Shown here piece by piece: positions 2,651 to 21,708 of a stretch of 64,000 nt of DNA. The stretch lies in assembly GCF_054482525.1 (NCBI RefSeq), contig NZ_CM137006.1, one strand, 5' to 3'. Numbering within the stretch: position 1 is the first letter of the stretch; every line of letters begins with the position of its first letter. Below the pieces are notes generated by a model. It was not told the DNA's origin. It was given only the letters and a program-made list of their open reading frames with translations, and did no database searches. The translations under genes were made by a program, and so were the position numbers.

Positions 2651-2923
2651 ATATTTAATTTATAGATCACAATGTAGGTTCATGTAATATATGTATACAA
2701 CTATTTTTCTCTTCACTTTTAATTATCGTATTCATTATAACACTAAGTTAAAAAACTCCTGGAGAGTGAGTCATTAATATATTTTTAAATATAATTAAGT
2801 TATTATTCATCGATGCATTTTATAGAATCATCAATGGCTACAATAGTACTATTAACTCTCCAATTTATATTTTTATTATCATTGCAAATATTAACTGAAT
2901 CTATATCAATGATTTTTTTATTT

Positions 2924-3319
2924 TTATCTTTTATTTACAGTTTCAATGCAATCAGCGACAAGTTGGTGTGGATTTAGATTCTTCAGATATGGTCTTATGA
3001 TCTTTCCCTTGCTTAATAAATAGCATGTATAGGATTCGGAAAGTCCAGCATCTATTTTGTACATCATTATTCTAGATAAGGATGTGAGAAATGCCTTGTT
3101 ATCATTAGCAGCCATATATGCCAGTCCGAGTTCAGCCTCTGCGGCTTTACATGAAAAATAGCTAAGTGAACACGCTTTTCGTCCCTCTTGGGTACTGGCT
3201 GATATTAGTGCCCATAATATTGCCTTGTCTGCCAAATCCAACTCTCTCTGAAATTGGTTTACAGTAACTGCATTCGCAGAAATAGAGAAAAAAAGCACAA
3301 TTGTTAATAACCTTGCCAT
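2924..3319 (-). CDS. Orphan immunity-like protein for the adjacent Rhs C-terminal tip; predicted signal peptide
   Basis: 131-aa ORF starting ATG 5 bp after the Rhs-fragment stop; N-terminus MARLLTIVLFFSISANA looks like a Sec signal peptide; AT-rich codon usage. Confidence 0.6.
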   Translation of the reverse strand: MARLLTIVLFFSISANAVTVNQFQRELDLADKAILWALISASTQEGRKACSLSYFSCKAAEAELGLAYMAANDNKAFLTSLSRIMMYKIDAGLSESYTCYLLSKGKIIRPYLKNLNPHQLVADCIETVNKR

Positions 3320-3323
3320 ATTT

Positions 3324-4133
3324 CTAGTCCGTCACTGTTAATGTGCTATCTGGCTCTGAAAATATTAGCTCATTTAATTTTTGCATGTCATTAGATGAAC
3401 CAGTTATACAACCCTCGGAACAGAATCGAGGTCCTAAAGATGGACCAAAAGCGTTTAAACAACTATGTGTTAAAAATCCATCACGATTATACGTTTCTGT
3501 ATTTGCTGACGGTACTAAACGTATACCATTAGGTTTTCTATTAGTTGCTCCAGGACCATTAACATTCCAGCTCCATACCCCTGGAGGTATTGGGCCTCTA
3601 TTTTGTAAGTGTGTACAACCAGGATTATTTTTACATTGCATATTATTACCATTATTACCAGAGGCGACTGAAATAGTAAGCACACCATAAGAATTATCAT
3701 CACTTGGCGTATCTGAAACGCATGAAAGCATACCTAAAGTTATGCTGTATAAACAGGTCGCTAATCCCAACGGGTCAATATCAGTTATCGGATTCAACGG
3801 ATACTGATAAAAATTCCATCCCCCCTTCAGTCCAATCGGATCCTGAGTGATATACCGCCCCTGCAGCTGGTGCGGGTTCTCTTCATTCAGCAGGTTGCCC
3901 CACTCATCGTATTCTGCGCACCATTCTGTTGCCCCTTCCGTGCTGATAAGCACCAGCGGCAGGCCGCGATGGTCGCAGTGGTACAGGTGGATTTTTCGCG
4001 CCGGCGTGTACACCGGGTCCATCTGGTTTTGCATCTGCGCCACCGTCAGGCCGCACGATGCCAGCCAGCGTCGGCTTTCCTCACTCACCCGGTCAGCCAG
4101 GATTTCACTTTCCAGCCGGTCGAGCATCTGCAC
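3324..4133 (-). CDS. Orphan Rhs C-terminal fragment (core end plus divergent toxin tip); no own ATG start
   Basis: Translation [29 protein letters not shown]...[18 protein letters not shown] is near-identical to the rhsA core end in this window, then diverges after the DPxGL motif into a unique Cys-rich tip; ORF-track start is a GTG that is an internal Val codon in rhsA. Confidence 0.7.
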
Positions 4134-4174
4134 CGTGCCGGCGGGAATACCTCACTGTGCATAGGCAACTCACG

Positions 4175-5017
4175 CTATGAACGCTTCAGCTTATCAATAA
4201 CGGAAGTTATAATTTCATTGTCATCAAACTTGTACAACATAGTATCTAAAACAGGAAGTAGCGTTTTATCACCTAATTCACCCGCAGCTTCAATGATATC
4301 ATCATAAACAGTATTTTTTTTTAACTCATCGCATAAAACAGATAAAACCCTTTTATCTTTTCTGTAGGAAAGTCCGATTATTGCTTCAATACGGACTTCC
4401 TCATTTTTATCCTGAAGCATCTCCACAAAATAATCCCTAATATCACTATTATCATATTTATTGATATTTATTGCAAATGCGGCCCAGTTTCTGACATCTC
4501 CATTTGGATCTTTTAACAGATTAATCAATAGTGGAATTGTTTCTTTATCATTGATAACAGAAATAGCAAATGCCGTAGCACGTCTGACATTAGCCGATTT
4601 ATCAAAAGCAGTAATTTGAGATTGTTCTACTATTTTAGGTGAATAAATTGGGTTTTTCTTGCATCGCTGAGCAGTTGACTCGATTGCTGTAGCTCGAACG
4701 CAAGCACTTTTATCATTCAGTGCCATCTTTTTTAAAATATTAAAAACGCTATCTTCGCATTTTTTGCAAACTTTTATTTGCCCGAGTATAAATGCTCCTA
4801 TATCTCTACGGATATAATTTTTGTCAGCGCAGAATTCAATTGCCAATCTAACAGCGTCTTGCCCACCTCTTAGCTGCAATACTCTGGCAGATGAAATCCT
4901 TTTCAATGAATTGCGATTATCAAGTAAGCGAAATAATTCATCATCATTTAGTTTCTTACATTGATTGTATAAACCATACTCTTTACTTGCCTTTCTTTTC
5001 TGGTATGTATTCGACAT
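4175..5017 (-). CDS. yibA: HEAT-repeat protein
   Basis: Translation MSNTYQKRKASKEYGLYNQCKKLNDDELFRLLDN... matches recalled YibA (280 aa); GGAGG RBS 8 nt upstream of ATG at 5017. ORF-track start at 5032 is a 5-codon extension. Confidence 0.85.
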   Translation of the reverse strand: MSNTYQKRKASKEYGLYNQCKKLNDDELFRLLDNRNSLKRISSARVLQLRGGQDAVRLAIEFCADKNYIRRDIGAFILGQIKVCKKCEDSVFNILKKMALNDKSACVRATAIESTAQRCKKNPIYSPKIVEQSQITAFDKSANVRRATAFAISVINDKETIPLLINLLKDPNGDVRNWAAFAININKYDNSDIRDYFVEMLQDKNEEVRIEAIIGLSYRKDKRVLSVLCDELKKNTVYDDIIEAAGELGDKTLLPVLDTMLYKFDDNEIITSVIDKLKRS

Positions 5018-5121
5018 TGCAGGAACCTCCATAAAGACTATCTTTTTCTATCGTTTGACTGTCTGGAGTCCTCCACCTACTCTGCCATCAGCACACACGA
5101 TGTTTGTTTATCCTTACATAC

Positions 5122-5391
5122 TTATTTTCCGTGGCCAAAATTTAGAATTCTCCCGTCATTTTTGCCTATTTCTATAATAAAAACCCTACCAGCAATTTGG
5201 TCTGATTCAATGGTGCCTTCAACAATCCAACTTGTTGGTAATTCCATGATTTTGTATGGTTTTTCTTCTTCTTCTTCGGCATCATGTCCATAACGATTTT
5301 TAACATACATCTCAGCTAATTCCAATGCTATAGCTTTATTTTTGACCAAATTTCTAACGGTGTATTTCCCCTCACTTTCATACTTGCGCAT
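5122..5391 (-). CDS. Small NTF2-like (YbbC/YhhH-family-like) immunity-type protein
   Basis: 89-aa ORF, ATG start; shares KxxAxxLAExYxKxxYG...KPY...W.xEG...DG pattern with the 115-aa ORF at 6994..7341 and with Rhs-linked YbbC/YhhH proteins as recalled; no clear RBS. Confidence 0.5.
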   Translation of the reverse strand: MRKYESEGKYTVRNLVKNKAIALELAEMYVKNRYGHDAEEEEEKPYKIMELPTSWIVEGTIESDQIAGRVFIIEIGKNDGRILNFGHGK

Positions 5392-5472
5392 TATAATAAT
5401 ATTATTACACTGCGCCCATGTGTTGTATGTAAAAATAAAGATACAATCACATAGGTTCTGAATAATATTTTC

Positions 5473-5838
5473 TTATACGTTGTCATGTATTTTGCAAACA
5501 TTAGGCAATCCTTTTCCATTTATTATATCTTTCCCATGATTATCTATTGCTTTAAAATTTTCACCTATTGACCTTGAATTACTACAATCACTTCCAGTGA
5601 AATCTGAGTTATTCAGAATAGCATTCATCAGAGCCGCATTGCGAAAGACAGCATTTCTAGTTGATGTATGTTGAATCATTACATTTCTTAAATGAGTTTT
5701 TTCAAATTTCGCCCCATCAAGACAATAACCATTGAGGGTGGCACGATGTAGATTCATCCCGCTAAAATCATATCCAGCAAGAGTGGTACTATCTATCTCA
5801 AGAAATTTATTGGTTATTAAAAATGCGATTCTTATCAT
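5473..5838 (-). CDS. Pentapeptide-repeat protein (orphan immunity-like)
   Basis: Translation shows consecutive pentapeptide-like units (ATLNGYCLDGAKFEKTHLRNVMIQHTSTRNAVFRNAALMNAILNNSDFTGSD); first ATG at 5838 preceded by GGAGGA RBS; ORF-track TTG start at 5850 is probably an extension. Confidence 0.6.
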   Translation of the reverse strand: MIRIAFLITNKFLEIDSTTLAGYDFSGMNLHRATLNGYCLDGAKFEKTHLRNVMIQHTSTRNAVFRNAALMNAILNNSDFTGSDCSNSRSIGENFKAIDNHGKDIINGKGLPNVCKIHDNV

Positions 5839-5931
5839 CTGTTCCTCCAATCATCTAACTCCCGAAAAATTTGAAAACCAGAACCTCGCTTAGGCCTGTG
5901 TCCATACTACGTGGGTAGGATTATTCTACGT

Positions 5932-5974
5932 ACTACGCTGTTGTCCCTTACGTGCTGATAAGCGCCAGCGGCAG
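5932..5974 (-). repeat. Isolated ~43-bp scar homologous to the Rhs core-end coding sequence
   Basis: ...gctgttgtcccttacgtgctgataagcgccagcggcagg aligns to rhsA at about 8775..8817 and to the orphan fragment at about 3935..3966, with mismatches; flanks are unrelated. Confidence 0.5.
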
Positions 5975-6090
5975 GTTATTCGGTTTGCGTCGTTGAGTTC
6001 ACTACACTAAAACTCCGTGCCCATATAACCCAAGTCGGAGGCATGCCTTCCTCTGGTTCGTTCCATCTAAAATGTCTATACATAACATGG

Positions 6091-6333
6091 TTATTCAATT
6101 ATTTTTTCTTTGAGTTTATTCTCAATCCAGCTGTCTTTATACCTGATGAAAATTTGACATTCACCAATATTATCAATGTCACCAACATTTGTGTTTCGAA
6201 TTTGACCAACAGCAACTATAGTTGATTCAAAATATTCAACATTGACATTATCTGTAATTATTGAAATTATATAATCATCTGGAATAGAGCCATTAGGAGT
6301 TATATTGAAGAAACTAACATCTGAAAATACCAA
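6091..6333 (-). CDS. Hypothetical small protein (80 aa), possible orphan immunity gene
   Basis: Open frame with only a TTG start and no internal Met; AT-rich; lies downstream of a decayed coding remnant. Weak call. Confidence 0.3.
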   Translation of the reverse strand: MVFSDVSFFNITPNGSIPDDYIISIITDNVNVEYFESTIVAVGQIRNTNVGDIDNIGECQIFIRYKDSWIENKLKEKIIE

Positions 6334-6559
6334 ATAACCATCTTCTAAGTCTTCATTATCATAAAAATTCCATTCTGTTGTACCATAGGCTATCCTTGAG
6401 ATTAAATTAACCTGAATTCTAATTTGTTTACTCCATAAATCAAATTCAATTTTTTATTGCTCGATCACCAAGATATATTCTATCAAACATATTACCCCCC
6501 TATTCTAAAAATACTCAGGCATTCCGCACATTATATCAGCCTCATCTTGATTGCTTCCC

Positions 6560-6840
6560 GTTTCCCAATACGGCGGCGCGGGGAGTCATAAAGGTAAGAA
6601 ATTTCCAGCAGTACGGCGTCCTATTGTTCACGGCGGTAATGCACCAGCCAGTATTGGCTATCGTAGTGATAACCGTGTAACCTGCCGCCGCATCGCGTAT
6701 CTAATGTTCATTCTTTTCCATAAACCGTCCGTACACATTGTGATAGTAAAAATACAATACATCTTCGCTGATGCGGTTATTCTGCTGCATGTGGGAAGCG
6801 CCGAATACTGCTCCCGGTATGGCCAGTAATTACTATTTAG
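6560..6840 (-). pseudogene. Decayed coding remnant (possible orphan toxin-tip fragment)
   Basis: GC-richer patch in AT-rich DNA; minus-strand frames give protein-like stretches (LAIPGAVFGASHMQQNNRISEDVLYFYYHNVYGRFMEKNEH*, AGYTVITTIANTGWCITAVNNRTPYCWKF...) broken by stops; ORF-track 67-aa and 92-aa ORFs overlap here. Confidence 0.3.
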
Positions 6841-6993
6841 TACGACGTTAGGGGGAGTCACTTAATCTCACAGATACTTCAAGTAACAGATGAAAATCGC
6901 TCCTGAAATGAAAAAGAAATTTTTTTGAATGTGTTCCTGTCAAATCAAGTGGTTTTTTCGTCGATATGTAGAGTCATATTGTACACAAAATAG

Positions 6994-7341
6994 TTACGAA
7001 ACACACCTTGGTAAAATATTTGAATCGTCTGAACAGTGGATTATTTTGTGTATTACATCCAACGCTTGCCCATCTTTTTTCGCTATTAGTATTGTAAAAT
7101 TTCCTCCTAACGTCTTCGGTTGTTTTCCCTCGATTTTCCAACAATTATTGTCATCTGTAATACTATATGGTTTCTGAAATTCTGCTTTTTCTTTCCCGTA
7201 TATATATTTAATATAAACATATGATAATTCCAAAGCCATTTCACGACTATTTACTAAAATTTCCGCTGAATTTTCTTTTCCAAATACTGAGTGTGATATT
7301 GTAAACAATATCATAATAAGTAATATTAGTGAGTTTCTCAT
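6994..7341 (-). CDS. Secreted NTF2-like (YbbC/YhhH-family-like) immunity-type protein
   Basis: 115-aa ORF, ATG with AGGTG RBS; N-terminal signal peptide MRNSLILLIMILFTISHSVFG; shares motif pattern with 5122..5391. Confidence 0.6.
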   Translation of the reverse strand: MRNSLILLIMILFTISHSVFGKENSAEILVNSREMALELSYVYIKYIYGKEKAEFQKPYSITDDNNCWKIEGKQPKTLGGNFTILIAKKDGQALDVIHKIIHCSDDSNILPRCVS

Positions 7342-7509
7342 GCTCTACACCTATCGAATCTCAAAAGTTGTGGGTAAAACATTACATTCAGAATATATGA
7401 TATTCTTACCATCGGAATCCATTTTTCCAAATCGACCTTCTGGTGTTCCTGGATACCCATTAAGAACATATTTTTTCGAATAGTTAATTTATTTTCTCAG
7501 GAAGAGATT

Positions 7510-8079
7510 TTATTTTTCTTCACTACGAAGTAGTTCATGCTGTACTTTTGTTAAACATTCGTAAGACTCATCTTTGTTCGGGAGATGTGCTGTCATTCGA
7601 GCATAAGTTGGCTTCTCATCTTTAAAATATTTAACCATGATTGAATTATCAAGGACTGCCAACAACTGAGCTGGATCACTGCTCTTTTTTTGATAGATAC
7701 CCGCTCTTATATAACTTCTAAACCGATCGCCGAGAAACGCCGTTTTTTCTGCTGTATTTAGCAACTCCTGCAACGTTCCTTTGGTTGCATGATTTTCATT
7801 AAGGCGTAGTGATCCGACGCGAATTAAGAGTCTCGCCCCGCTTGGTGTGAATTTGTTATTTTTACATATACCAAGCTCTGTTTGCCAATAATACTCACCT
7901 ATGTCCTCATTCTGATACCATCTCCACATGGTTTTATTATTTAAGACAGGAAACGCGGAAAAAATAGTACCCTTAGTGAAAATGGTAAAGCAATCTTGAT
8001 CTTTAGCTTGTGTTTCGCAATTAGCTATAACACCAAAACTAACGAATATCATCAGCAAAAAGAACAAAGCTCTTTTCAT
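7510..8079 (-). CDS. Putative cognate immunity protein of RhsA (secreted)
   Basis: 189-aa ORF whose ATG overlaps the rhsA stop by 4 bp (8076..8079); N-terminal signal peptide [19 protein letters not shown]; AT-rich relative to the rhsA core. Confidence 0.65.
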
Positions 8080-11000
8080 TTTCTTATTCCTCTCGATGTT
8101 CTCTGTTTCATTTTAGCTAAAATTTCACCCAAATCATCTATCCCTGCTGTTGCTGGCCCATCGGGTTTATTAATGTCTGGGAATAAATAGGGTTCTGCAC
8201 AAGTATATCCTGGTGGTAATTGAGTTGTTGGCCAAGTTGTCTGTGGCAGGTAATCACTTGCTGTCTTTGTCTCCATCCCTGGATACTGGGGATCATCCTG
8301 CGGCGTACAAGTCAGATTGGGTTTTACCCACTTCCTGCAATACAGTGTGTAATCGTAAGGACTTAATGCTCTGAAGAATGTTTTGAAAACATTAGGCGCA
8401 CTACTGGCCTGGTCAATAGGATATGGCAGTCTTAATTGTTTCGCTATGTCTGGCAACTTACTTGGATCGGGCGTAGGCGGTTTGTTGGGTCTCGCTCCAT
8501 ATCCGCCATTATTTAAGTGTCCATATTTAGATGCCAGTCCCATTGAATCTATATACTGAACCGGATTTAACGGATACTGATAAAAATTCCATCCCCCCTT
8601 CAGTCCAATCGGATCCTGAGTGATATACCGCCCCTGCAGCGGGTCATAATAGCGGTGGCGGTTGTAATACAGGCCTGACTCCTCATCATACTGCTGACCC
8701 GGCAGGCGGATGAGCTGCTGCAGCTGGTGCGGGTTATCCTCACTCAGCTGGTTACCCCATTCATCGTATTCTGCGTACCATTCTGTTGCCCCTTCCGTGC
8801 TGACAAGCGCCAGCGGCAGGCCGCGATGGTCGCAGTGGTACAGGTGGATTTTTCGCGCCGGCGTGTACACCGGGTCCATCTGGTTTTGCATCTGCTCCAC
8901 CGTCAGGCCGCACGATGCCAGCCAGCGGCGGCTTTCCTCACTCACCCGGTCAGTAAGGATTTCACTTTCCAGCCGGTCGAGCATCTGCACCAGCACCGGC
9001 GGGAACACCACATCACCACCGTCTTCACCGCCGGACTGCTGAAGCGCATCCGCCAGGCTGCGGCGCTGCGTTTTCGCCAGCTCACCGGTGGCAGTTTCAA
9101 CTCTGATGAGTGGCGTGAAGCTCCCCGGCTGATAAACCGTCTGGATGCGGGTTCTGTCGTTCTGTATCGTGGTCAGCCGGTCGCCGTCCCAGCCGTACCA
9201 GGTCACTTCCGGTTTCCGTGACAGCGACATCCAGCCCGTCAGGTCCCGTTCACGCCGCCACACCCGTTTTGCCACCCTGCGGCCCAGCGGGTCGTAAAGA
9301 TAGCGACTTTCGACCAGCGGCTCTGCATATTGTGTCCGCGTGTAGTGCACCAGCCGGTGCTGACTGTCGTAATGGTACTGGTGAGTCCGCTCATCATCCG
9401 TGCGGATAACCCCTTCCGGGATGAGGTCGGTTTTCTCTGTCAGCCTGCCGTGACGGTCATACCGGTAAAGATAGTGCGCGTCACGGGCGATACGGTTATC
9501 CGGCCACATGCTGAGGGTGCTGTCCGGGTGCAGCTCCGGGTCGGGCAGGCGGTTACCTGCCGGGTCTGTGGCATACGGGATGCGGATATCAAGGTTCGCT
9601 GCCGTGGTGTGAACGCCGGTCAGCCTGCCGGAGTCGCTGTAGCTGTAACTCCGGGTCTGGCGCGGGCTGCTGATGCGGATGAGTTCGCCGTTGTCGTTCC
9701 AGGTGTAATCGCGGTCATACTGCAGGCTGTTCAGATGCTGGCTCTGTAACTGCCCGGCAGGGGTGTAAGCGGTGGTGAGTTCATAACGGCCGAAGCTGCG
9801 CAGCGTTTCCCGGTGCAGGCGGTCGCGGGTGAAATCCACCAGCGGTGTGTCGCCGAGTTTCATGCCTGACAGCCAGCCGCTGCCGTAGGTCAGCCATTCC
9901 ACGGCGGGCAGGCTGTCCGGTATACAGCGGTTCGCCAGTCCCTGCGCGTTGTAAGCGTGTCTGGTTTCATGCTGCCAGAGCAGTGCTTCCGTCTGCGGGT
10001 GATGCACCGTCTGGCGCTCACCGGTCAGGCGGCCTTTCTCATCATACCCGTAATGCACCGTCACCCGGTGGCCTTCGCTGAGATGGCTGATTTGTGTCAG
10101 CCAGCCGCGTTCGTCATACTGCCACTGCTCTGCCGGTTCACCCTTCACGGTGCGGTGAGTGAGGCGGTCTGCTTCGTCATAGTGCCAGTGGGTGACCAGC
10201 CCCTCATCCTCGCTGCGGATAAGTTTGCCGGTCAGGTCGTGGTGATAACGCTGTGTGCGGCCGTCAAAGCCGGTTTCCTGTATCAGCCGGTCAAGTACAT
10301 CGTAACGGAAGGTGGTGTGGCTGCCGTTTTCACTGGTCAGGCGGATGACCCGTCCGGCAGCATCGTATTCCATACTGCGCGTCAGACCGCCCTGCGTGGT
10401 ACGGATGGCCTTTCCCCACGCATCGTACTGTGTCCCGTTTCTGCTGCCGTCCGGGGCAATGACGGCGGTCAGGTCACCGGCGGCGTTGTATTCATACCGC
10501 GTTTCATGGCCCTGCATGTCTTTCACCGCAATTAACTGTCCACGGCTGTCGTATGCGCGGTACTGGCTCAGGCCTTCCTCGCGGTGCACCGCCGTCACCT
10601 GACCAAAACGGTCATGGTCATAACGGGTTACATAACCGGAACAGTCAGTGACGGTCAGCAACTGACCGTAACGGCTCCATGTCATGGTTTTCCGGCTGCC
10701 GGTGGCATCCTCCGTTGCGCAGGGTAAGTCACTGTGTGGATTATCATAACGGTAGCGGGTGATATCGCCGTCAGGGGCAGTTTCCTGAATCAGACGGCCG
10801 GATTCATCATATTCCCGGCGTATTTCCAGCCCGTCAGTCCCGGTGGCTGACGTTAACTGGCTGTGGTGGTTATAGTAAAACGCCGATGCCCTGCCATCCG
10901 GCGTGGTGATGCGCGTGATGAGGCCCGTCACCACATCCGGGCTGTATTCTGTTGTCCGGCCTGCGGCATCCGTCTGTGCCTTAAGCCTGCCCACCGCATC

Positions 11001-12263
11001 AAACTGACTCTGCGTGACGCTGCCGTCCGCGTGTTCCTTTTTCACCACCCGCTTCAGCCCGCCTTCGCCCTGCGTGTGCAGCACTTCACGGCGGTCCAGA
11101 CTGTCGGTGATGGTGATGCGGTCTTTCTCATACTGATACGTGTAGCTTAAGCCTGCCGGGTTTAGCTGCTCTGTCACCCGCCCGTCGCTGTCGTAACGGT
11201 AACGGATTTCCGGCCGGCCCGTGTGACGGTGCGCCACCATCCGGCCCCGGTATTTATCATCGTAAGTAAAGCTGCGCACCTGTGTATTGCTGCGGTCATA
11301 CACCGCCGCCAGTTCGCCGCGCGGCGTCCAGCCATAGCGTACCAGCGGCGCGGCTGGCAGGTTATCCGGATATTCCGGGTCGTGCGTCAGCCACACGGCA
11401 GACAGACGGATGCCGTTGTCCCGGCCATATTCGGTGTAACCCGGCAGGGTATCAGGAAAAGCGGACGGTTCCGTCCCGCCGGAAATGGCCTGCTGCCGGG
11501 CTTCTTCTGCCCGCTGCGCCTGCGTGGTCAGTACCAGCCGGAAGTGACGCCCGGCACCATCCGTCACGCCGCTGAATTCGCCGCCAGCCTCACGGTGGAA
11601 CGTCTGTGTGCGCCCGAAGCGGTCCACCAGCCCGGTCAGTACCCGGTACGGCGGCAGCGGCGCAGGCAGCACCTCATCCGCCTCCGGCACCCGCTCACAC
11701 CAGCCGAGTACCCACCACGGCCCCTGCGGACTGTTCGTCGCCAGATAACGATGCGGACTCAGGCGAAGCTCTTCCGGCAGCGCCTGCCAGAGTGCGGCCA
11801 GCCGGTGACCTTCATCCAGTTTCGCCACGCCGCCACGCACCAGCCAGAGTGACTCGCTGCGGCTGTAACCGTCCTCACCGGGAAACAGGTGCTCAAAATA
11901 CAGGCTCCTGCCGCCGTTATCACTGAGTATCAGTGTGTTATCGCGCAGCTGTAAGCGGATATCCGCGGGCATTTTCCAGCCGGGGCCGAGGCTCCCCACC
12001 GGCGCGGGCGTTTTTGTCCGGTAACTGCTGTAGGTGCGGGAGAGGATGAACGGCAGCGGGCCGGGCAGGGCAAGGTCGGTTTCGCCGGGAAGGACCTTCG
12101 CGCCGAGCAGCGGATTGACCGGATGGCCGGACGTCACCCCGCCGGGGCACACCGAACAGGCCACGCCGGTGGGGGCACCGATGCGCACCCCGGCTGAACC
12201 CTGAACAATGCTACCGCCATACTGCGTCATGTCGCCCTGACGCGCCGCCGGTTTTCCGCTCAT
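8076..12263 (-). CDS. rhsA: Rhs-family polymorphic toxin: PAAR-like N-terminus, YD-repeat core, variant C-terminal tip
   Basis: 1395-aa ORF beginning [29 protein letters not shown], repeated YD/RY motifs, conserved [15 protein letters not shown] near the end followed by a ~170-aa proline-rich tip; sits beside yibF as rhsA does in K-12; GC-rich core. Confidence 0.95.
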
Positions 12264-19516: not shown

Positions 19517-19552
19517 AGGCAGGCAACGTTAATAGTTGTCTGCCTTTGTTTT
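19517..19552 (+). terminator. Rho-independent terminator after aldB, shared with the convergent gene
   Basis: Stem aggcaggcaac / gttgtctgcct (one mismatch) with gttaata loop followed by ttgtttt; the stop of the minus-strand 359-aa gene lies in the T-run. Confidence 0.6.
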
Positions 19553-20630
19553 AGTTGTATAAAGCGGCAGTCGCTTTTAACTCATCGCTGAAAGAATAAA
19601 TATCATCGAGAGATTCAATAGGATGGCGGGTTTCGTTTTTCTCTAAGTCAAATAAACCAATATATTTTTGATTTCGATTGAAATGTAATCTACAGAGTGG
19701 TTTTCGATTATTGTCATCTACAAGTATACCAAAATAGCTTTTTGTATCTCTGTGGACTATTCGTGGTGCATCAAGCACTACGCGGACTATAGCTTTAACA
19801 ATATGAAATCCTTCAAGTTCCTCCATAGTAGTGGCAATATCGGTTTCTTCTTTATTAATACATTCTACTTCCTCATTGTGTGAATTCGAATCAATTACAG
19901 ATAATGACCCACCACCTATTGCCGATTTCAATCTTTCGTTTATTTGAGAGCCAATATATTGATTGGCAGCTTTCTTTGTTAATTTTGCAAACGTATCTTT
20001 TACCTTTTGTGTTAACATACCTTCATAAATTCTTGCTGCAAAGAATTTTACAAAATCCTCTTCAGGATTATTCATTTGTGCATGGAGAACTTTTTTAATT
20101 AAACTAACATATTTTAATTCACCTGCAGCATTAATTATTGATTCCAAATCAAATGCTGATTTAGTAAGCTTTTTTATCTCGGGAACAACTGTTTCGTCTA
20201 AGTCAAGTAGATCTATCTCAAGAAATGGTTTTTCATCCATTTTATTAGGTGCTTCTAAATCAGTAAAAAATTTATAAACTTGTCCATTGGTTAGAATAGA
20301 TATTCTTGCATTTGTTACATGAAAGTATCGAAAAAGCTGTGAAGCATGATTTATATTTAGAGGATCACCAATTTTTTTGCATTCAATGAGAATCTGAACC
20401 TCGCTATTTTTTAAGATTGCATAGTCAATCTTTTCACCTTTCTTCGTTCCAATATCGCATACAAACTCTGGGATAACTTCGGTAGGATCAAAGACATCAT
20501 AACCTAACACATTGTTAATGAACGGCATTACGAAAGCATTTTTGGTAGCTTCCTCCGTTTCAATGACTCCGGCTTGTTGTTTTATTTTTGCGGATAATGA
20601 ATTCAGCTTATCTATAAACTCCATAGACAT
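19551..20630 (-). CDS. Uncharacterised 359-aa protein with N-terminal PD-(D/E)xK (HsdR-N-like) nuclease-fold domain; candidate defence gene
   Basis: ATG with AAGGAG RBS; N-terminal ~120 aa contain PEF...KIDYAIL...ILIECKK (E-D-ExK arrangement typical of HsdR N-terminal/Mrr-like nuclease domains); helical middle; unassigned C-terminal region VVLDAPRIVHRDTKSYFGILVDDNNRKPLCRLHFNRN; visibly AT-rich gene. Confidence 0.75.
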   Translation of the reverse strand: MSMEFIDKLNSLSAKIKQQAGVIETEEATKNAFVMPFINNVLGYDVFDPTEVIPEFVCDIGTKKGEKIDYAILKNSEVQILIECKKIGDPLNINHASQLFRYFHVTNARISILTNGQVYKFFTDLEAPNKMDEKPFLEIDLLDLDETVVPEIKKLTKSAFDLESIINAAGELKYVSLIKKVLHAQMNNPEEDFVKFFAARIYEGMLTQKVKDTFAKLTKKAANQYIGSQINERLKSAIGGGSLSVIDSNSHNEEVECINKEETDIATTMEELEGFHIVKAIVRVVLDAPRIVHRDTKSYFGILVDDNNRKPLCRLHFNRNQKYIGLFDLEKNETRHPIESLDDIYSFSDELKATAALYN

Positions 20631-21072
20631 TATAACTCCTTTTATATATATTTAATAAAAATGCGTTTGATAAAAATATAGAAAATATTTATATATTAAC
20701 GCCTTATCATTGGTCATAGTTAATGTATAACACACAAAAAATAATGTTTGCACATTGTAAATACAATGGTGAAACAAACTTGATATTTATCAAGAAAATA
20801 AAACAATGTCTTTTATTGGTTGTTTTAAACGTCCAATGAATACGAGTTGGAGCTATAGCAAGACTAGCTTCGATATCGCATGGATAATCTAATACAGATT
20901 TTTTAACACCTAATACTATGAGTTATATGTAAATTGCGAGCATCCTCGCATCTTTTCAACAAGTTACTGCACACCGTTATTCTCCTTCCGAGCGAGTCAA
21001 CTTTATCCCCCTGACGGCCCATATAAATCGCGCTATCGTGATTGTTATCGCTAATTGTGTGTGTATCGTGTG

Positions 21073-21078
21073 TATAAT
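21073..21078 (+). promoter_or_regulatory. Candidate -10 hexamer (TATAAT) for hicAB
   Basis: Perfect TATAAT 18 nt upstream of the hicA start, followed by GGAAGGG RBS-like sequence; no convincing -35 identified. Confidence 0.3.
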
Positions 21079-21095
21079 CATGGAAGGGCAGGGAT

Positions 21096-21281
21096 GTGAA
21101 AAGTGCAGACGTGATCGCTATCCTGAAGCAGCATGGCTGGGAACATATTCGAACCCGTGGCAGTCATCATCAGTTCCGCCACCCTGTTCATCCGGGTCTG
21201 GTGACGGTTCCGCACCCTAAAAAAGATATTAAGCCCGGTACGCTGGCGCAAATTGGGCGTCAGGCTGGTTTAACATTTTAA
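21096..21281 (+). CDS. hicA: HicA-family mRNA interferase toxin
   Basis: 61-aa ORF (GTG start) with GSHHQFRHP...HPKKDIKPGTLAQIGRQAGL, the HicA/YcfA-like signature; followed by hicB. Confidence 0.8.
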   Translation: MKSADVIAILKQHGWEHIRTRGSHHQFRHPVHPGLVTVPHPKKDIKPGTLAQIGRQAGLTF

Positions 21282-21297
21282 AATTTCAGGAGGCAAT

Positions 21298-21708
21298 ATG
21301 TTTTATCCCGCCTATATCCACAGTGATCCTGACGGCAGCGCCAGCGGTTTTTTCCCTGATGTTCCAGGCTGTTATTTTGCTGGTGATACGCTGGACAACG
21401 CTTTCCAGGATGCGCGAAGTGCACTTGTCGCGCACTTCGAAACCTTATGCGAGATGAATGAAGAGTTGCCGCTTCCAGGCTCTGTGGAAACACATCTGGT
21501 CCAGCGTGCGCAGGACTTTATTGGCGGGCAATGGTTGCTGGTGGATATCAATATGAATCAGTTCGAAGGTCGGGCTGAACGTATCAATATTACGATGCCG
21601 AAAAGATTACTGAACAAGATTGATACCTACGTGCGCAATAACCCAGACTACGCCAACAGAAGTGCGTTTCTGGCGGAAGCTGCCCGGCGTGTATTGCCGG
21701 GCGCTTAA
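21298..21708 (+). CDS. hicB: HicB-family antitoxin with C-terminal DNA-binding region
   Basis: 136-aa ORF 17 bp downstream of hicA; N-terminal HicB-like fold sequence and C-terminal RHH-like segment (ITMPKRLLNKIDTYV...AFLAEAARRVL). Confidence 0.8.
   Translation: MFYPAYIHSDPDGSASGFFPDVPGCYFAGDTLDNAFQDARSALVAHFETLCEMNEELPLPGSVETHLVQRAQDFIGGQWLLVDINMNQFEGRAERINITMPKRLLNKIDTYVRNNPDYANRSAFLAEAARRVLPGA

Follow-up and report, generated by a model that had tools for sequence, protein, structure and literature searches.

Rhs loci are generally described as undergoing successive displacement of their C-terminal toxin tips, and in the Tse5 (RhsP1)/Tsi5 pair the Rhs toxin C-terminal domain acts on the cell envelope, the tip being a membrane-inserting pore former and the immunity protein a membrane protein. 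The present analysis concerns the rhsA locus of E. coli contained in a 64,000-nt stretch of contig NZ_CM137006.1 (assembly GCF_054482525.1), henceforth referred to as the window, and in particular three small immunity-type proteins of 131, 115 and 189 aa encoded at that locus, each of which begins with an N-terminus resembling a Sec signal peptide.

Among the closest described systems is the Tlde1 (DUF2778) toxin family, whose catalytic motif has the form H-x(n)-(S/T)-H-G-C-h. Tlde1a contains two conserved disulfides in addition to its catalytic Cys, and its H129A substitution causes only a partial loss of its activities. A 2020 preprint on Tlde1 reported toxicity in the periplasm only and a Sec signal on the immunity protein, counted Rhs-DUF2778 fusions as 11% of one subfamily, and cited Imm57 as a predicted partner. 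Imm57 was linked to LD-peptidase toxins by Zhang et al. (PMC3482391), where the immunity proteins of such toxins are given as secreted or transmembrane. A second family, Imm-NTF2-2, is paired in the literature with Tox-JAB-2/DUF4329 toxins, the tips of which are predicted nucleases or RNases, and the Rhs-DUF4329 tips of Salmonella adjoin signal-less CdiI-like immunity proteins. Reading the site of toxin action from the signal of the immunity protein is standard practice in this literature and routine in the type VI secretion field. The literature searched yielded no functional study of ybfC, ybfO, yhhH, ybbC or yibV and no experimental work on YbfO/YbfC or NTF2-2 proteins; a paper on the localisation of "ybbC" was set aside as it concerns Bacillus subtilis.

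Organization of the rhsA locus

Gene annotation was taken from the NCBI Prokaryotic Genome Annotation Pipeline (PGAP) for E. coli strain 19KM1776 (NZ_CP151009.1), the genome of which is 100% identical to the window. The locus lies between mtlA-yibI-yibH and yibF-selA, and all genes described here, from 2803 to 12263, are encoded on the minus strand. The open reading frames (ORFs) for the 131-, 115- and 189-aa proteins are all present and are all annotated by PGAP as coding sequences (CDS). The principal features are as follows.

8076..12263, minus strand: full-length Rhs core protein, 1395 aa (NCBIfam RHS_core match)
8076-8534, minus strand: YbfO-type C-terminal toxin domain, the last 152 codons of the main Rhs, after a DSMGL cleavage motif
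7510..8079, minus strand: YbfC-family immunity protein, 189 aa; predicted signal encoded by 8023-8079 (residues 1-19)
7351..7488, minus strand: 3' remnant of an Rhs DUF4329/Tox-JAB-2 tip (last 45 codons and stop)
6994..7341, minus strand: orphan Imm-NTF2-2 protein, 115 aa; predicted signal encoded by 7279-7341 (residues 1-21)
3324..4154, minus strand: orphan Rhs tip, comprising a core stub (3762-4154) and a Tlde1-like toxin domain (3324-3761)
2924..3319, minus strand: Imm57 immunity protein, 131 aa; predicted signal encoded by 3269-3319 (residues 1-17)

Displaced Rhs toxin/immunity cassettes are stacked at this locus. In strain 2013C-4282 (L019), a full-length Rhs at the same locus ends in the Tlde1 tip, an intact Imm57 of 173 aa comes next, and the interval from yibF to yibH holds nothing further; the window is therefore read as a pile of successively displaced tips. 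The whole 6.2-kb arrangement was found, at a coverage of at least 80%, in only 35 of 5,426 complete E. coli genomes, its individual pieces being far commoner.

In the proposed explanation, the 3' end of the main rhs gene would take up a new C-terminal tip along with its immunity gene, displacing older tips to downstream positions where they decay. The three immunity proteins would be made with N-terminal Sec signal peptides, exported, probably cut by signal peptidase I, and retained in the periplasm, where they would bind toxin domains arriving from neighbouring cells. The first pair would comprise a Tlde1-type, L,D-transpeptidase/carboxypeptidase-like toxin attacking peptidoglycan and Imm57, both of them degenerating in this strain. 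The second and presumably active pair would be the PAAR-bearing Rhs with its YbfO-type tip, translationally coupled to YbfC; YbfC would be a disulfide-bonded beta-sandwich exported to the periplasm, and the tip would have a target in the envelope. The 115-aa NTF2-2 protein would be the immunity protein left behind by a displaced DUF4329 tip and would probably protect only against neighbours that still carry that toxin. The analysis establishes the domain identities, the gene order, the coupling, the conservation of signal-like N-termini and of cysteines, and the remnants; from these we infer export, signal cleavage, disulfides, toxin binding and the compartment in which the YbfO-type and DUF4329 tips act. 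Taken as a whole, a cassette stack with three exported periplasmic immunity proteins is considered a likely explanation of the locus.

Export-signal features of the three immunity proteins

The N-terminus of the 131-aa protein consists of MAR, the stretch LLTIVLFFSIS and then ANA-VTV, with cleavage predicted between ANA and V. That of the 115-aa protein consists of MR, NSLILLIMILFTIS and HSVFG-KEN (predicted cut between VFG and K), and that of the 189-aa protein of MKR, an apolar core and VIA-NCE (predicted cut between VIA and N). The n-regions carry net charges of +1, +1 and +2, respectively. The uncharged cores begin at residues 4-6 and reach 8-residue Kyte-Doolittle means of 3.1-3.8; the apolar runs span 12, 13 and 16 residues, giving h-regions of 12-13 residues in the 131- and 115-aa proteins and of 16 in YbfC. 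A Sec-type signal has a positive n-region and an h-region of 7-15 residues within the first ~12 residues, and all three proteins conform to this description, with YbfC at the upper limit. Small, uncharged residues occupy positions -3 and -1 directly after the h-region in every case.

A crude, home-made rule set for export was applied to the 56 annotated CDS of the window as an in-window control. The filter picked all three proteins along with YiaO, MalS, XylF, Bax and YiaF, which are exported proteins or lipoproteins, and the membrane peptide HokA. It made no false call among the cytoplasmic window proteins (0/~36) and overlooked three lipoprotein or late-core signals. Since no cytoplasmic window protein was picked, the feature is not a chance by-product of AT-rich ORFs. 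The basic start, hydrophobic stretch and small-residue cleavage motif that the original prediction had described for the three proteins were thus confirmed.

The same prediction had held that Rhs immunity proteins are usually cytoplasmic, a premise that is weak for E. coli, given that K-12 YbbC, YhhH, YbfC and YibG have signal-like N-termini and YbfB is hydrophobic throughout. Its description of the locus as dominated by exported immunity proteins was generous: it overlooked a fourth signal-bearing gene, the yhhH-like pseudogene at 5122-5501, and YibA and the DUF6258 protein have no signal.

Cleaved signals were distinguished from uncleaved signal anchors solely by h-region length and the -3/-1 rule. 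The three N-termini could instead be uncleaved anchors, or lipoprotein signals in some YbfC relatives, leaving the immunity proteins tethered to the inner membrane and facing the periplasm, not soluble in it. Such a tether would agree with the 16-residue apolar run of YbfC, with the passage of the membrane peptide HokA through the filter, with the transmembrane domains given in the literature for Tai7-type immunity proteins, and with the lipobox-compatible sequences found at Cys21 in several YbfC homologs (L-A-S-C, I-A-A-C or I-G-A-C) and in K-12 YbbC (L-F-A-C). However, the h-regions of the 131- and 115-aa proteins are only 12-13 residues long, and a good -3/-1 site is present in all three proteins. 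The lipobox pattern [LVI][ASTVI][GAS]-C was found in none of the three; no Cys lies near the predicted cut in the 131- and 115-aa proteins, and the window YbfC reads I-A-N-C. A lipoprotein reading of the window YbfC was rejected because Asn at -1 is unfit for a lipobox, and among YbfC homologs Cys21 co-occurs with Cys72 or is missing along with it, as would be seen for a disulfide partner and not for a lipidated residue. Membrane tethering is accordingly regarded as quite unlikely, and the immunity domain would face the periplasm with or without it. Export followed by signal cleavage is the reading suggested by these N-termini.

The possibility that the true starts are downstream Met codons was also rejected, as relatives with unalignable N-terminal sequences still begin in a signal-like manner. 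NCBIfam searches returned no family for the three proteins, only chance-level matches, and sequence and profile searches of the PDB returned nothing for YbfC, NTF2-2 or the toxin parts, the only matches being to the Rhs core.

The YbfO-type tip and YbfC

The N-terminus of the main Rhs opens with a literal PAAR motif. Its tip is 98.5% identical to the C-terminus of K-12 YbfO, and the 189-aa protein is 92.6% identical to K-12 YbfC; the ybfC start codon overlaps the rhs stop codon (ATGA). The tip together with ybfC was found in at least 851 of the 5,426 complete E. coli genomes, K-12 carrying ybfO/ybfC, and the window YbfC is 92.6-99% identical to widespread copies.

Nineteen YbfC homologs of at least 59% identity were compared. 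Pairwise identity is 50% over their first 19 residues and 71% over the mature part, and all 19 nevertheless have an MK/R start, a hydrophobic core and [AVS]-x-[AGS] at -3/-1. Cys21, Cys30, Cys72 and Cys175 are invariant among them. Downstream of each of four distant toxin homologs (35-43% identity), an overlapping gene encodes a YbfC homolog of 188-207 aa (21-33% identity) with a signal-like N-terminus and a mature part whose Cys are even in number; the family thus reaches beyond Enterobacteriaceae. When the distant relatives are included (alignments A1 and A6), Cys30 and Cys175 remain invariant, and Cys21 and Cys72 are kept or lost together. Two disulfides would give this pattern, and it suggests that YbfC resides in an oxidising compartment. 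In the AlphaFold2 model of YbfC, residues 1-19 have a predicted local distance difference test score (pLDDT) below 50, and the remainder forms a beta-sandwich.

The YbfO-type tip, which carries the motif SPYDYtqYC.KW, has no Pfam family, no relative in the PDB and no fold match outside its own family. An exhaustive, profile-free search of 1.84 billion representatives recovered only 28 relatives. A weak match to the tip, P0159 (826 aa), was dismissed upon inspection as a repetitive protein with no visible resemblance to Rhs tips. Considering the predicted export and disulfides of its partner, it is plausible, and on balance probable, that the YbfO-type tip is an envelope-acting toxin.

The orphan NTF2-2 protein and the DUF4329 tips

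The 115-aa protein contains a complete Imm-NTF2-2 domain (PF15631; E 1.1e-17; residues 35-99 on model positions 1-67 of 68). It shares 82-84% identity with P0054, a 100-aa protein that adjoins an intact DUF4329 tip in L020, and only 35% with YbbC and YhhH. A 2-bp deletion (6994-7050, minus strand) sets it apart from the intact 100-aa homolog, its last residues being replaced and a 15-residue tail with two Cys added. An intact DUF4329 tip is absent from this locus, the NTF2-2 gene being preceded only by a 45-codon scrap. This remnant (7351-7488) has 91% DNA identity to the end of the intact Rhs-DUF4329 gene that stands with an NTF2-2 gene in L020, and the peptide it encodes aligns with the RhsD C-terminus. 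The segment from ybfC to the NTF2-2 gene is present at a minimum of 95% identity in 851 genomes.

Signal-like N-termini were found in five mutually unalignable NTF2-2 versions, namely the window copy, the window pseudogene, YbbC, YhhH and a copy from Hafnia alvei. A scan of the genome collection with the NTF2-2 alignment returned five loci only, including one divergent copy, from Hafnia; two of the three contigs labelled as metagenome-assembled genomes (L008 and L009) hold K-12-type yhhH and ybbC sequence. The RhsB C-terminal tip matches DUF4329 with an E value of 4.6e-40, and the RhsB and RhsD tips of E. coli K-12 have six Cys at matching positions. It was also observed that the DUF4329 tips of E. 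coli pair with signal-bearing NTF2-2 proteins and those of Salmonella with signal-less CdiI-like proteins, and no single explanation covers both.

An alternative is that some of the toxins act in the cytoplasm, most clearly the DUF4329 tips and possibly the YbfO-type tip, in which case an exported immunity protein would intercept its toxin in the periplasm and the signal would mark the site of neutralisation, not the site of the target. The predicted nuclease or RNase nature of DUF4329/Tox-JAB-2, the signal-less partners of the Salmonella Rhs-DUF4329 tips, and the lack of a recognisable envelope-directed enzyme fold in the YbfO-type tip are all consistent with this alternative. By contrast, the six matched Cys of the RhsB and RhsD tips and the three conserved Cys of the YbfO-type tip fit folding in an oxidising compartment, and the Tlde1 literature assumes that an immunity protein resides where its toxin acts; no experiment on the DUF4329/NTF2-2 or YbfO/YbfC families was found in the literature searched. 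Action in the cytoplasm is judged unlikely overall, with envelope action preferred for the YbfO-type tip. For the cognate tip of NTF2-2, the step from an exported partner to envelope action is uncertain and unsafe.

The YbfO-type tip may represent a new class of small, disulfide-stabilised periplasmic toxins with a ~100-residue core and an exported beta-sandwich partner, and the DUF4329 tips of RhsB and RhsD may be periplasmic metallopeptidase-type toxins and not RNases. The latter reading was suggested by the signal-bearing NTF2-2 partners and the six conserved Cys. This twofold proposal is offered tentatively, as possible but short of probable.

The orphan Tlde1 tip and Imm57

The orphan tip matches the Pfam RHS family and, weakly, Tlde1_dom (PF10908; E 5e-7; residues 165-253 on model positions 10-105 of 120), and PGAP names it "tlde1 domain-containing protein". 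Its motif reads H-x15-S-E-G-C-I, in which the upstream His, Ser, Gly, Cys and hydrophobic residue of the Tlde1 motif are present and Glu replaces the second His. The 131-aa protein, whose gene begins 4 nt past the stop codon of the Tlde1-domain tip, contains a complete Imm57 domain (PF15596; E 8.5e-45; residues 30-127 on model positions 2-100 of 100). One homolog, with 55% identity in alignment A2 and 62% over its best-matching local stretch, begins differently yet still in a signal-like way (MRSTFFIFLLLLFFSTATLA), which supports a functional export signal in the Imm57 family. The pair of Tlde1 tip and Imm57 was found in 3,690 of the 5,426 complete E. coli genomes. Homology shows the orphan tip and Imm57 to be a pairing of a known kind, predicted to target peptidoglycan and to act in the periplasm. 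For this part of the locus, the step from exported immunity to envelope action is right but already known, and nothing new is added to it.

The original prediction had further described the orphan tip as Cys-rich, which agrees with the 7 Cys counted in the 145 residues of its toxin part, and had proposed that the tips act on the envelope. The latter proposal stands by homology for the orphan tip, is plausible for the main tip, and is uncertain for NTF2-2, of whose cognate tip only a 3' scrap is left.

Neither member of the pair is intact. The Imm57 copy has 131 aa compared to 173 aa in full-length relatives (alignment A2) and is marked as a pseudogene by PGAP; a frameshift in an A-rich tract has removed 42 residues, including two conserved Cys. 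The lost tail (last 42 codons; 2803-2945, minus strand) is still readable in another frame with the two conserved Cys included, and many database copies of Imm57 are broken at the same A-rich tract. The orphan tip has no start of its own, and its core stub has an in-frame 28-codon deletion. The stub (3789-4154) is 94-98% identical to the main rhs gene (8562-9012); the 28-codon gap falls between two LQ repeats and leaves the Rhs-associated core incomplete. Compared with the full-length copy of strain 2013C-4282, the toxin part carries a duplicated GNN. In K-12 the pair is heavily degraded, being represented by the wreck yibS/yibW plus yibV.

These defects raise the alternative that the small ORFs are decaying remnants, unexpressed or non-functional, and that their signals are relics without a current role in this strain. 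The frameshifted Imm57 with its two lost Cys, the C-terminus of NTF2-2 rewritten by the 2-bp deletion, the deleted and startless orphan tip, and the heavily degraded K-12 copies would all be explained in this way. Decay does not extend to YbfC: its gene is undamaged and translationally coupled to that of a full-length PAAR-Rhs, and the protein is 92.6-99% identical to widespread copies; moreover, the Imm57 and NTF2-2 Pfam domains are complete, and the ybfC-to-NTF2-2 segment has been kept in 851 genomes at 95% identity or above. As an account of all three proteins, loss of function is considered somewhat unlikely, and exported immunity in successive stages of displacement is preferred.

Evidence weighing against periplasmic immunity

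Several observations weigh against the proposed explanation. At 16 residues, the apolar run of YbfC is as long as those of cleaved signals usually get, and all three N-termini were assessed with the home-made rule set. The Tlde1 match is weak (E 5e-7), with Glu in place of the second His of (S/T)HGC, and no pairwise match of the orphan tip to the solved Tlde1a or to another solved structure was obtained. In the Tlde1 subfamily in which Rhs fusions are most frequent, the immunity proteins have transmembrane domains and not Sec signals according to the 2020 preprint. No enzyme could be related to the YbfO-type tip, and the number of its conserved Cys is odd (3; alignment A3). Lastly, since DUF4329 tips are predicted RNases with signal-less partners in Salmonella, an exported partner alone is no proof of periplasmic action.

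Other genes and remnants at the locus

Downstream of the NTF2-2 gene, the order is a diverged Rhs core scrap, the DUF6258 gene, a 54-bp core scrap, a pentapeptide-repeat pseudogene, the NTF2-2 pseudogene and yibA. The annotated features of this interval are as follows.

6091..6450, minus strand: DUF6258 family protein, without export signal (PGAP)
5473..5559, minus strand: C-terminal remnant of an RhsB-type DUF4329 tip, ending FKAIDNHGKDIINGKGLPNVCKIHDNV (ORF translation compared with the K-12 RhsB C-terminus)
5122..5501, minus strand: frameshifted yhhH-like Imm-NTF2-2 pseudogene (PGAP "NTF2 fold immunity protein, frameshifted")
4175..5017, minus strand: yibA, HEAT-repeat protein (NCBIfam PRK09687, E 6.6e-137)

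The diverged scrap lies within 6451-6993 (~6560-6700) and reads YHYDSQ..LVHY...LYD, and the 54-bp scrap (5922-5975) is 87% identical to the main rhs gene; both mark further displaced cassettes. The N-terminus of the DUF6258 protein contains no uncharged 8-residue stretch, and its gene is probably of the immunity type, with a cytoplasmic product, and derived from another displaced cassette. In the annotation (6091-6490, minus strand) this gene begins at ATT. A second ORF, in a different frame and opening with ATG, lies immediately upstream; it and an A-run point to a frameshift instead of a non-canonical start.

In a 125-aa ORF (5473-5850, minus strand), a pentapeptide-repeat pseudogene runs on in frame into the ~27 C-terminal residues of the RhsB-type DUF4329 tip, and PGAP labels both pieces of this chimera as pentapeptide-repeat partials (partial pseudogene). 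In the NTF2-2 pseudogene, the severed N-terminal piece, MFAKYMTTYKKILFRTYVIVSLFLHTTHG, is signal-like when compared with K-12 YhhH, and the frameshift parts it from an 89-aa ORF starting at an internal Met. YibA has no hydrophobic N-terminus.

Outside E. coli, an orphan Rhs tip array was observed in Hafnia alvei (L006, 452-3321), in which one tip has an HExxH metallopeptidase motif and the tips alternate with small signal-bearing or multi-pass membrane proteins; exported Rhs immunity proteins therefore appear to be common beyond E. coli as well. Elsewhere in the window, a type I restriction endonuclease gene and a hicA/hicB toxin-antitoxin pair (19551-21708) lie between aldB and a GH127 gene and are unrelated to the export signals.

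Significance of the locus

The location of the immunity protein is the cheapest clue to where an uncharacterised toxin acts, and here it points to an envelope target for the YbfO-type tip, a family without a functional assignment. It also exposes a conflict between the RNase label of the RhsB and RhsD tips and their exported immunity partners; this conflict and the YbfO-type tip are the most interesting loose ends of the locus. All of the parts are of known kinds, and most are annotated families found in hundreds to thousands of E. coli genomes. The finding is thus a sound and modestly useful pointer and no surprise.

Comparison with known systems

The orphan tip and Imm57 resemble the Tlde1/Tldi1 (Tae5/Tai5) pair of the Salmonella SPI-6 (Salmonella pathogenicity island 6) type VI secretion system in having a Cys-rich, DUF2778/Tlde1 L,D-transpeptidase-like toxin with its catalytic Cys in an xGC motif and a small, signal-bearing immunity partner, and the fusion to an Rhs core recalls the Rhs-DUF2778 proteins with Imm57 neighbours. 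The immunity protein is Imm57 here and the DUF2195 protein Tldi1 there; the motif is S-E-G-C here, in a weak Pfam match, and S-H-G-C there; and the present copy has been displaced and orphaned, its immunity gene being truncated.

The Rhs core of Tse5 from Pseudomonas aeruginosa matched the main Rhs core in the PDB search. The tips of the present locus differ from that of Tse5 in not being hydrophobic, and their partners, unlike Tsi5, resemble soluble exported proteins.

The 115-aa protein and the 5122-5501 pseudogene belong to the same immunity family as the partners in K-12 rhsD-ybbC and rhsB-yhhH, with comparable signal-like N-termini, and the NTF2-2 genes of the window are preceded by scraps of the same DUF4329 toxin family. 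The window differs in holding no intact DUF4329 tip, and its 115-aa copy has a frameshifted C-terminal extension.

The active pair is closest to ybfO-ybfC at the K-12 rhsC locus, with 98.5% identity in the tip, 92.6% in the immunity protein and the same overlapping gene junction. In K-12, however, ybfO is annotated as a pseudogene fragment downstream of rhsC, whereas here the tip ends a full-length, PAAR-bearing Rhs at rhsA and, unlike K-12 ybfO, is potentially deployed.

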